This document shows, in pieces, positions 18,163 to 21,100 of a stretch of 47,296 nucleotides of DNA. Made by a program: the position numbers. Source of the DNA: a virus (lineage: Duplodnaviria; Heunggongvirae; Uroviricota; Caudoviricetes); IMG/VR virus record IMGVR_UViG_2879765931_000007; one strand, 5' to 3'. The number at the start of each line of letters is the position of its first letter. Positions within the stretch are counted from its first letter, which is position 1.

Positions 18163-21100
18163 TGAGTTCACAGATAAAACACTCTCCAGGAAACCCGGGG
18201 CGGTTCAGCCTGATGCTTCGCACTGGTCTGGGTGCCAGACAAATTGAAGCATACCGCCAGAACTGTTGGGTGGAAGGCTTCCACTTCAAACGAGTATCTC
18301 CTTTAGGGAAGCCAGACAGTAAGCGAGGGATTATCTGGTACAACTATCCGAAGATAAATCAGTTTATCAAAGACTCATGATATGTCTAAATTACCAACAG
18401 GTGTCGAGATTCGAGGTAAATACATTCGCATCTGGTTCATGTTTCGAGGAAAACGATGTCGGGAAACATTGAAAGGCTGGGAGATTACTAACAGTAACAT
18501 TAAAAAGGCCGGGAATTTAAGAGCGTTGATAGTTCATCAAATCAGTTCCGGTGGGTAATGACTCCAACTTACTGATAGTGTTTTATGTTCAGATAATGCC
18601 CGATGACCTTGTCATGCAGCTCCACCGATTTTGAGAACGACAGTGACTTCCGTACCAGCCTTGCCAGATGTTGTCTCAGATTCAGATTATGTCGCTCAAT
18701 GCGCTGAGTGTAACGCTTGCTGATAACGTGCAGCTTTCCCTTCAGGCGTGATTCATACAGCGGCCAGCCATCCGTCATCCATACCACGACCTCAAAGGCC
18801 GACAGCAGGCTCAGAAGACGCTCCAGTGTGGCCAGAGTGCGTTCACCGAAGACGTGCGCCACAACCGTCCTCCGTATCCTGTCATACGCGTAAAACAGCC
18901 AGCGCTGACGTGATTTAGCACCGACGTAGCCCCAATGTTCGTCCATTTCAGCGCAGACAATCACATCACTGCCCGGTTGTATGCGCGAGGTTACCGACTG
19001 CGGCCTGAGTTTTTTAAGTGACGTAAAACCGTGTTGAGGCCAACGCCCATAATGCGTGCACTGGCGCGACATCCGACGCCATTCATGGCCATATCAATGA
19101 TTTTCTGGTGCGTACCGGGCTGAGAGGCGGTGTAAGTGAACTGTAGTTGCCATGTTTTACGGCAATGAGAGCAGAGATAGCGCTGATGTCCGGCAGTGCT
19201 TTTGCCGTTACGCACCACGCCTTCAGTAGCGGAGCAGGAAGGACATCTGATGGAAATGGAAGCCACGCAAGCACCTTAAAATCACCATCATACACTAAAT
19301 CAGTAAGTTGGCAGCATTACCTGACCCGTTATCTAAAACAGAATTCAATGCATTAATGGAAAGTGAAAAAGGACAGAGCCAAAACTTGTGGAAATTTGCC
19401 GTTTACTCCGGGCTTCGTCACGGGGAACTGGCAGCTCTGGCGTGGGAGGATGTGGATTTCGAGAAGGGAATTGTGAATGTCAGAAGAAACCTGACGATAC
19501 TTGATATGTTCGGTCCCCCAAAAACAAATGCCGGGATCCGGACGGTAACATTACTGCAGCCGGCTCTTGAAGCACTGAAGGAGCAATACAAACTGACCGG
19601 GCATCATCGCAAAAGCGAAATCACTTTTTATCATCGGGAGTACGGCAGAACTGAAAAACAAAAACTGCATTTTGTTTTCATGCCCAGGGTGTGTAACGAA
19701 AAACAGAAACCTTATTACTCGGTAAGCAGTTTGGGTACAAGATGGAATGCAGCAGTAAAACGTGCTGGTATTCGCCGCCGTAATCCGTACCACACGCGAC
19801 ATACTTTTGCCTGCTGGCTGTTGACGGCAGGAGCGAACCCGGCATTTATAGCCAGCCAGATGGGGCATGAAACTGCGCAAATGGTGTATGAAATTTACGG
19901 TATGTGGATTGATGACATGAACGACGAACAGATAGCCATGTTGAATGCGCGGTTATCGTAGTTGCAAAGTTTGCCCCCAATTTGCCCCATTTAGTACCAG
20001 AGAACTGAAATAATGCAAGAAAATCAACAAATTACAAAGAAAGAACAATACAACCTGAACAAGTAAGGGCAAAAATCACAACTATCTGACTCATAAGTAT
20101 TTTATTTATTTTTCAATATGTTAAACATTATCAGCGACAACAATAAGCTACGATAACCCACTCTTTTTTGCCCCTTTTTTGCCCCTTATACAGCGTTTTG
20201 CCCCATTTTTGCCATCAACAATTTTCCTCATAAAGTCATTTCAAAGCCTAATAGCTGCTCTACTTTTTTCCTCAATATCATGTCGCCAGCAGGAAACAAC
20301 CTAATCCCTGTTTTAGGCCTCAAAGCTGTTAATGATAATTATTTTCATTTTGTATAGGTTATGCTATAAAACATAGCCGTTGCTATGTTTGTTCTAATTT
20401 TGCTCACTATAGGTACTAAATTATGCACTCAATAAAAAAAGTAACCATGCTCTTGGGGTGCCTCGCCCTCACCTGCTCGATCGCATTTCAGGCAAGTGCA
20501 ACTGAAAAATTCAAGGTCATTACAACATTTACCATCATCGCGGATATGGCCAAAAACGTGGCTGGAGATGCTGCAGAAGTCTCATCCATAACCAAGCCTG
20601 GTGCAGAAATTCATGAGTATCAGCCTACCCCTGGCGATATTAAACGTGCGCAGGGGGCACAACTGATTCTCGCCAATGGTATGAATCTGGAATTGTGGTT
20701 CCAACGCTTTTACCAGCATCTCAATGGGGTTCCAGAAGTAATTGTCTCTTCGGGTGTGACGCCAGTAGGGATCACCGAAGGACCCTATGAGGGCAAACCT
20801 AATCCCCATGCATGGATGTCGCCAGATAATGCTCTGATTTACGTCGATAATATTCGTGATGCGTTGATAAAATACGATCCGGCAAATGCACAAACCTACC
20901 AACGTAATGCCGATACTTATAAAGCCAAGATTACCCAAACCCTTGCCCCCCTGCGTAAGCAGATTACGGAACTCCCTGAGAATCAGCGATGGATGGTCAC
21001 CAGTGAAGGGGCTTTTTCTTATCTCGCACGCGATTTGGGGCTAAAAGAGCTTTATCTGTGGCCGATTAATGCCGATCAACAAGGAACACCGCAGCAGGTA

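Follow-up and report, generated by a model that had tools for sequence, protein, structure and literature searches.

A probable Rac-type phage attachment site beside the sitABCD promoter in an IS-rich prophage region, with candidate arm-type repeats on both sides of the attachment core

The stretch of DNA considered here (IMG/VR virus record IMGVR_UViG_2879765931_000007, Caudoviricetes; 47,296 nucleotides, hereafter the window) carries, in this order, the excisionase gene xisR, the 5' end of the integrase gene intR, a copy of the insertion sequence (IS) IS1, the 3' end of intR, a phage attachment site (attP), the sitABCD operon and a tail-fibre assembly gene. A reading of this DNA made from the sequence alone had described positions 19962-20422 as a sit promoter region containing Fur- and MntR-type operators and a cluster of TTTGCCCC repeats. 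Our analysis, whose features are collected in Table 1, supports the view that this region consists of two adjacent and functionally unrelated modules, namely a Rac-type attP (19962-20215) and the sitABCD promoter (20216-20422), and we put the probability of this reading at about 0.82. Accordingly, the designation as a promoter region holds for 20216-20422 and fails for the first 254 bp, since these are present without sit in the Rac prophage of Escherichia coli K-12 and in E. coli Jnd12, while the sit locus of sequence type 131 (ST131) is found without them.

The xisR-intR region of the window is 95% identical to its counterpart in E. coli Jnd12. The alignment of the Jnd12 intR to the 5' fragment stops at 18553, and beside the IS1 copy 422 bp of the gene have been deleted, nucleotides 173-594 of the Jnd12 intR being missing from the window. 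Intact IntR carries an N-terminal Arm-DNA-bind_2 domain (PF12167, E=3e-26). The 5' fragment covers positions 1-53 of the 65 positions of this profile, and in the 3' fragment, in which PF00589 is the sole Pfam match, the arm-binding domain was not found. The 3' fragment is 99.6% identical to the ttcA-adjacent intR of E. coli.

Table 1. Features of the window around the attachment site and the sit promoter (positions are those of the whole window).
Feature	Position	Strand	Basis and remarks
xisR-type excisionase, open reading frame	18213-18380	+	Pfam PF06806 putative excisionase, E=6e-17; upstream of the integrase
intR 5' fragment, first 57 aa (most of the arm-binding domain)	18382-18553	+	PF12167 Arm-DNA-bind_2, E=4e-20
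IS1 within intR	18554-19321	-	768-bp match to IS1 of plasmid pAR349; NCBIfam IS1 transposase, E=3e-43
intR 3' fragment (catalytic domain)	19320-19961	+	Stop codon 19959-19961; Pfam PF00589 only
P' arm, tandem pair of putative Int arm-type sites	19970-19988	+	TTTGCCCC at 19970-19977 and 19981-19988; 11-bp period
Phage-borne replacement ttcA 5' end (ATG CAA GAA AAT CAA ...)	20013-20062	+	Identity to attL
Integration host factor (IHF) consensus site AATCAACAAATTA, putative H'	20022-20034	+	Exact WATCAANNNNTTR match; between the P' sites and the core
Common core of attP, attB, attL and attR, AAGAAAGAACAATACAACCTGAACAA	20037-20062	.	26 bp, four-way alignment
IHF-like site TTTCAATATGTTA, P arm	20111-20123	+	One mismatch to WATCAANNNNTTR; preceded by an A/T tract
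P arm, four putative arm-type sites in two tandem pairs	20167-20215	+	TTTGCCCC at 20167-20174, 20178-20185 and 20197-20204; TTTGCCAT at 20208-20215
sitABCD regulatory region	20216-20422	+	Similarity to sit-less Rac falls off steeply past 20215; ST131 sit similarity begins at 20226
Fur box GTTAATGATAATTATTTTC	20328-20346	+	16/19 to the 19-bp consensus GATAATGATAATCATTATC
MntR operator AAACATAGC-CGTT-GCTATGTTT	20369-20390	+	Exact palindrome, 33 bp before the sitA ATG
sitA, sitB, sitC, sitD	20423-21337, 21337-22164, 22161-23018, 23015-23872	+	Open reading frames; RefSeq annotation of near-identical E. coli loci

The identity of the first module emerges from comparison with the two junctions of integrated Rac prophages. 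Specifically, positions 19320-20062 of the window are 99.6% identical to the 3' part of the E. coli intR and its lead-in to ttcA, that is, to the Rac left junction, and positions 20055-20214 are 94% identical to the attR of the K-12 Rac prophage beside uspF, after which the K-12 right junction runs into ynaM-ydfK-pinR-tfaR. In an alignment of the window with attL and attR, both taken from a single E. coli genome, and with the unoccupied attB of a Rac-free genome, the attP of the window proved to be made up of the left half of attL and the right half of attR, and a single 26-bp core was common to all four sequences; the crossover must lie within this core. Therefore, since its left side equals attL, its right side equals attR and its core is shared by all four, the segment 19962-20215 is, as judged from these alignments, a complete and uninterrupted attP (P'-core-P) and belongs to a lambdoid phage of the Rac type, with the 5' end of ttcA as its target. 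The earlier guess of an att remnant was thus right about an attachment site and wrong about a remnant, as P' arm, 26-bp core and P arm are all in place.

The annotated ttcA start in attL corresponds to the ATG of the window at 20013, and the window is identical to attL all the way from there to the end of the core. In the integration of Rac, the phage version of the first ttcA codons replaces the bacterial ones, as described by Liu et al. (2015, PMC4632033), who report the Rac att sequences and not the arm sites. Compared with the Rac attL and attR at the K-12 ttcA locus (PMC4632033), the window has an identical core, arms with 94-99.6% identity, and the same integrase and excisionase. The differences are that its two arms are joined as an uninterrupted chromosomal attP, that its intR is split by IS1, and that its P arm is followed by sitABCD, where K-12 has ynaM-ydfK-pinR. 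The same uninterrupted junction, leading from intR to the Rac tail-fibre end and lacking sit, is present in E. coli Jnd12, and similarity to the sit-less Rac falls sharply past 20215. A search of viral contigs with IntR found 80 nearly identical prophage ends, truncated at the integrase or shortly past it; those that reach further are all attL. It should be added that RefSeq annotates, in Jnd12 (4783-4956 of the compared stretch, - strand), a hypothetical protein of 58 aa antisense across the P arm; as this DNA has an att function, the annotation is probably an artefact.

The gene order of the window is that of a circular phage genome read across its attP, and it is also the order found between two tandem prophages; an uninterrupted P'-core-P in a chromosome would mark the boundary of two tandemly integrated prophages. 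In E. coli H22, a degraded element that ends in an integrase 3' fragment follows uspF, and after it come attP, sitABCD and an apparently complete Rac-like prophage. In E. coli CFSAN029787, which carries a single prophage, sitABCD lies directly inside attR by uspF, and xisR-intR-attL-ttcA is found about 48 kb away. Intact attP sequences were detected in 38 of 5426 complete E. coli genomes, versus 2925 genomes with attL or attR parts. Beside uspF, H22 also carries a frameshifted metal ABC permease pseudogene (2085-2600 of the compared stretch), 67-69% identical to sitD, which may be what is left of an earlier sit-like cargo of divergent sequence that occupied this attachment site.

All together, the junction looks like the relic of a tandem lysogeny. 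A different origin, in which homologous or IS-mediated recombination brought a circular phage genome into a prophage already present and left its attP intact, with no tandem Int-mediated lysogeny, could draw on the great number of IS copies in the window, on the long homologous stretches that lambdoid prophages share, and on the sitD-like remnant of H22, which at only 69% identity to sitD indicates that the left element was no identical twin. We nevertheless regard this origin as improbable, because the order at the ttcA/uspF locus (left element, integrase fragment, attP, right prophage) is the one predicted for tandem insertion at attB, and because 38 E. coli genomes and a ColV plasmid share this junction. 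This same distribution implies that the junction is older than the IS activity of the window. In the window itself, given that the integrase is broken by IS1, the attP is a fossil unless another IntR-type enzyme acts in trans.

Turning to the repeats, five exact copies of TTTGCCCC lie on the + strand within 235 bp, starting at 19970, 19981, 20167, 20178 and 20197, and a degenerate sixth copy, TTTGCCAT, is found at 20208. The entire 47.3-kb window contains eight exact copies, compared with 2.1 expected from dinucleotide-preserving shuffles, and the remaining three are far off and on the - strand. At least five motifs had been noticed beyond the integrase 3' end as one cluster; the five exact copies are indeed there, arranged in two clusters. 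The first pair begins 9 bp past the integrase stop codon, and the other four copies follow about 200 bp further on. As a result, repeats unlike the core stand on both of its sides, two in the P' arm and four in the P arm, and strict TGCCCC pairs occur nowhere in the 47-kb window outside these two arms.

A further candidate, an inverted seventh arm site (GGGCAAAAA, 20067-20075), was dropped, as divergent attR sequences read GAGTAAAAA and GGACAAAAA at this place. In addition, the region contains a perfect 11-bp inverted repeat (GGTTATCGTAG / CTACGATAACC) at 19951-19961 and 20148-20158, whose two arms immediately precede the P' pair and the P-arm pairs, respectively. By a rough estimate, about 0.01 such repeats would be expected by chance in 311 bp, and the repeat is partly conserved in divergent attR; in other attPs, comparable long-range inverted repeats were not consistently present. 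The possibility of an attP-only RNA structure resembling lambda sib, extending from the integrase 3' end to the P arm, was rejected, as the fold of 19940-20170 gave a z of -0.97, which is not significant. An Rfam scan of 19800-20600 at E<=1 returned no match.

Between the repeats and the core, both arms contain a candidate site for IHF. The exact WATCAANNNNTTR match in the P' arm is one of only two in the whole window. The one in the P arm is partly conserved in divergent attR, where its TTTTCAAT portion is invariant, and the 933W-type Stx1 phage has a near-identical IHF-like element, TTTCAATCTGTTA, in its P arm. By analogy with lambda, a heterobivalent IntR would contact the TTTGCCCC sites with its N-terminal Arm-DNA-bind_2 domain and the core with its core-binding and catalytic domains, and the bends induced by IHF would fold the arms onto the core, thereby building the intasome.

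Related loci also bear on the function of the repeats. In the attR of O26:H11 and OkiPb01695 (77-80% identical overall), the repeats are kept while their flanks drift, and a 10-bp deletion in OkiPb01695 takes out spacer DNA and no site. A broader comparison comprised 78 loci from different species, representing many Enterobacterales, with integrases 42-99% identical to IntR. The pair TG[CT]CCC-N5-TG[CT]CCC was found within -40 to +160 of the integrase end in 65 of the 78 loci, and only once elsewhere in about 310 kb. Conservation was then read from an alignment of 74 unique sequences anchored on the protein match and not on the motif, which superseded an entropy test anchored on the motif expression, circular at the motif positions. 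The twelve motif columns, codon third positions included, are conserved in 64-74 of the 74 sequences and are the most conserved columns of the alignment; the third positions of upstream codons vary freely. In the ttcA-targeting clade the pair comes after the stop codon, and in other clades it is translated as a C-terminal AP.MP[HQ], the open reading frame reading through the pair in 50 of 75 unique sequences. Since the pair is kept whether coding or non-coding and its third positions are invariant, we conclude that the constraint acts on the DNA. The AP.MP[HQ] tail of most integrases of the family looks, for its part, like a by-product of the DNA sites, and the Rac-type IntR ends before it.

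A second pair, in the same orientation, was found 197-211 bp downstream in six independent intact attPs, namely those of Rac, the 933W-type Stx1 phage, Providencia PSTRCR_117lys, Fraca/AsXd-1, Klebsiella RothC and Aeromonas pAEv1818. Two such downstream pairs are present in the Rac and 933W-type attPs, and beyond the P' and P pairs none further were found in the six attP loci. The layout extends to Pseudomonas phage MD8, whose integrase is 29% identical with a weaker PF12167 match: here the word is TGGTACA, and the pairs lie at 2018-2036, at the integrase end, and at 2213-2231, about 195 bp downstream (positions of the compared stretch). The MD8 word differs along with its protein, as is expected of a protein-specific binding site.

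The main competing explanation assigns the TTTGCCCC repeats to the excisionase (XisR) or another accessory protein and not to the integrase. Directionality factors bind short direct repeats, about one helical turn apart, in one attP arm, and the Xis of Gifsy-1, for instance, binds a tripartite site of imperfect direct repeats (PMC2603039). In the window, as well as in several related loci, an excisionase gene lies just upstream of int. We consider this explanation unlikely, as the motif flanks the core on both sides, in the manner of the lambda Int arm sites, whereas the sites of lambda Xis are confined to one arm. Moreover, the P' pair is physically tied to the integrase 3' end in 65 of the 78 loci, these integrases have a dedicated arm-binding domain that needs a target, and MD8 keeps the layout, yet no excisionase is annotated upstream of its integrase.

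Far less probable still is the idea that the pair at the integrase end is kept merely as coding sequence for the AP.MP[HQ] tail, with the downstream copies being coincidental T/C-rich repeats. Translation of the pair in two thirds of the unique sequences (50 of 75) is what speaks for it; however, the whole ttcA-targeting clade keeps the pair though the stop codon comes first, motif third positions are as invariant as first and second ones in a context of free upstream third positions, and non-coding DNA of the six attPs repeats the word at a distance of 197-211 bp. Finally, the repeats precede sitA by 210-450 bp on its own strand, and ColV plasmids carry a portion of the P arm along with sit, yet there is hardly any chance that the repeats act on the sit promoter as upstream regulatory elements, such as activator sites or an UP-like element, because they are present at Rac attR and attP sites with no sit following, as in K-12 and Jnd12, and are missing upstream of sit in ST131, where the Fur and the MntR box are both retained.

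In conclusion, these comparisons indicate that the TTTGCCCC repeats are very probably the arm-type sites of the Arm-DNA-bind_2 (IntBPP-1) integrase family. The proposal of arm-type sites had already been made in the sequence-only reading, and the comparison with attachment regions of phages encoding related integrases bears it out, through the P' pairs of 65 of 78 loci and the second pair of six attPs.

The resulting architecture resembles that of the lambda attP (P1, P2, P'1-P'3; H1, H2, H'; 15-bp core), as it spans about 250 bp directly downstream of int, has arm repeats unrelated to the core on both sides, and has candidate IHF sites, recognised by consensus match, between the arms and the core; lambda Int likewise has a separate N-terminal arm-binding domain. 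The lambda arm word is C/AAGTCACTAT, as against TTTGCCCC / TGCCCCA in the Rac-type attP, and the arm domain is PF09003 in lambda and PF12167 in IntR. In contrast to lambda, the Rac-type sites come in 11-bp tandem pairs, the P' pair overlaps the integrase coding end in most relatives, and the 26-bp core lies within the 5' codons of a gene, which are replaced by the phage.

IntR shares its PF12167 arm domain with the IntBPP-1 subgroup (BPP-1, Stx2a-phage, Gifsy-2) of Smyshlyaev et al. (2021, PMC8138268). In that study the members are called "putative integrases" and the sequence of the arm site is not given; arm motif and geometry come from the present comparisons, which may represent, at the sequence level, the first definition of an arm site for the Arm-DNA-bind_2 family. 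Among the relatives, the integrases of the 933W-type, Fels-1, phiP27 and others are 42-43% identical to IntR. In the PDB, no structure was detectable by sequence for the arm-binding domain of the IntBPP-1 family. As a tentative extension, which we hold to be somewhat short of an even chance, tandem pairs of TGCCCC(A) with an 11-bp period could be an undescribed arm element of the whole Arm-DNA-bind_2/IntBPP-1 family (Rac IntR, Qin-type, 933W-type Stx-phage and Fels-1 integrases), with a distance of about 200-210 bp from P' to P and with the P' pair embedded in the C-terminal codons of the integrase.

Several points weigh against the picture drawn so far. The attP of the window cannot work in cis, its own integrase being disrupted, and may be entirely inert; the tandem lysogeny is deduced, for this window, from gene order; and both IHF sites are consensus matches only. 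As to the repeats, 13 of the 78 loci show one-mismatch variants in place of the strict pair, and the Burkholderia phage phiBt-TXDOH was found without such repeats, the open reading frame tested there having 254 aa and a catalytic domain only, with no PF12167. In the open-access text searched, no description of arm sites for this integrase family, no published TGCCCC arm site and no report of IntR binding to such sites were found. On the promoter side, a scan for the sigma-70 consensus called no sit promoter, and the -35 and -10 hexamers given below were assigned manually.

In the second module, the Fur-box-like sequence that had been placed at 20326-20348 was found as a 16/19 box two bases further in at either end, the single match of this quality in the window (0.02 expected), and the MntR-type palindrome, placed at 20368-20390, proved to be exact with its start one base off. 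The palindrome is unique in the window, where 0.02 would be expected even with 3 mismatches allowed. Four sit lineages were aligned (the window, H22, ST131 and the common ColV-plasmid type), which are about 85% identical upstream of sitA. Both boxes are almost unchanged across them, and TAATGATAAT, together with flanking bases of the Fur box, is invariant. The promoter of the K-12 mntH gene has identical MntR half-sites (AAACATAGC / GCTATGTTT) with a 4-nt spacer, as well as a Fur-like box, an MntR box and an ATG in the same order, the differences being the spacer (AAAG, versus CGTT in the window) and unequal distances to the ATG. In addition, mntH encodes a core-genome NRAMP transporter, while the operator of the window drives a prophage-borne ABC importer, whose SitA component gave NCBIfam matches to metal-binding substrate-binding proteins.

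According to a review (PMC3852070), SitABCD expression is repressed by both MntR and Fur in enterobacteria, Shigella among them. In the window, Fe-Fur at the Fur box and Mn-MntR at the palindrome would be predicted to repress the sit promoter, likely by occlusion, as the predicted -35 (TTTTCA, 20342-20347) and -10 (TATAAA, 20365-20370) elements overlap the two boxes. The dual iron and manganese control proposed for this operon thus finds support in the presence of both boxes, in the half-sites shared with mntH and in the conservation across the four lineages. Such control of sit is already established, and this part of the analysis adds nothing new to it.

With respect to the sit-less Rac of K-12 and Jnd12, the window contains an insertion from about 20216-20246 to about 24036, which starts past the last P-arm site. 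The sitABCD operon is a moron. Prophage Perceval of E. coli LF82 (PMC9928086), a lambda-like prophage, likewise has sitABCD as cargo, and what distinguishes the window is that the cargo directly adjoins the P arm of a Rac-type attP on its outer side. The sit copies of ColV plasmids are 86-100% identical to the window in the promoter region. In pAPEC-O2-ColV (NC_007675.1), positions 1254-3325 of the compared stretch match window 19919-22020 with 97.7% identity and include the last 43 bp of intR, the entire attP and sit, a 30-bp deletion having collapsed two TTTGCCCC copies; judged by sequence, the int'-attP-sit junction of the chromosome appears to be the origin of this ColV plasmid sit locus. 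The more frequent ColV type starts at window position 20208, directly beside an IS1. In ST131, by contrast, sit adjoins an icd' fragment and not a Rac-type P arm. This icd' pseudogene fragment is the attachment region used by lambdoid phages of another type, and before sit (2387-2512 of the compared stretch) there is an 80%-identical copy of window 23919-24045, the sequence that follows sitD, as if a duplication or relocation of the ST131 cassette had included its downstream flank.

The rest of the window is very dense in IS copies, which belong to IS1, IS2 and two kinds of IS3-family element (for example at 533-1689, 2083-3239, 9335-10608, 12998-13816, 14170-15709, 18554-19321, 26820-27638, 27741-28244, 31023-32284, 33584-34740, 35245-36449, 38148-38651, 43860-45133 and 45661-46817). 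The Rac-like prophage is heavily broken up by them, with recE truncated (11526-12950) and intR split. At 4209-5924 (+ strand) there is a gene for a 571-aa type III effector E3 ligase of the IpaH family, scoring above the NCBIfam cut-off of the Shigella IpaH model; this points to a Shigella chromosome, with an ipaH gene inside or close to the same decayed prophage region. With this effector gene and its many IS1, IS2 and IS3-family copies, the window looks Shigella-like. A 498-aa tyrosine recombinase encoded at 29542-31038 (- strand), with weak Xer-like matches, is unrelated to IntR.

As to what these data mean for the integrase family, they provide a putative arm-site sequence and intasome geometry for a large and medically relevant group that includes the integrases of Shiga-toxin phages, a contribution of modest value. 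The motif could sharpen the prediction of prophage boundaries and, if the tandem pairs were indeed an element of the whole Arm-DNA-bind_2/IntBPP-1 family, attP, attL and attR, and roughly the position of the core, would become predictable from sequence for thousands of prophages. Also of value is the placement of sitABCD directly against a Rac-type P arm, together with the copying of the int'-attP-sit block to a ColV virulence plasmid. Lastly, an internal attP that is intact can usefully serve to recognise tandem lysogeny in the past; under the same family-wide assumption, such a chromosomal site could still be a landing pad or a recombination partner for superinfecting phages of the family.

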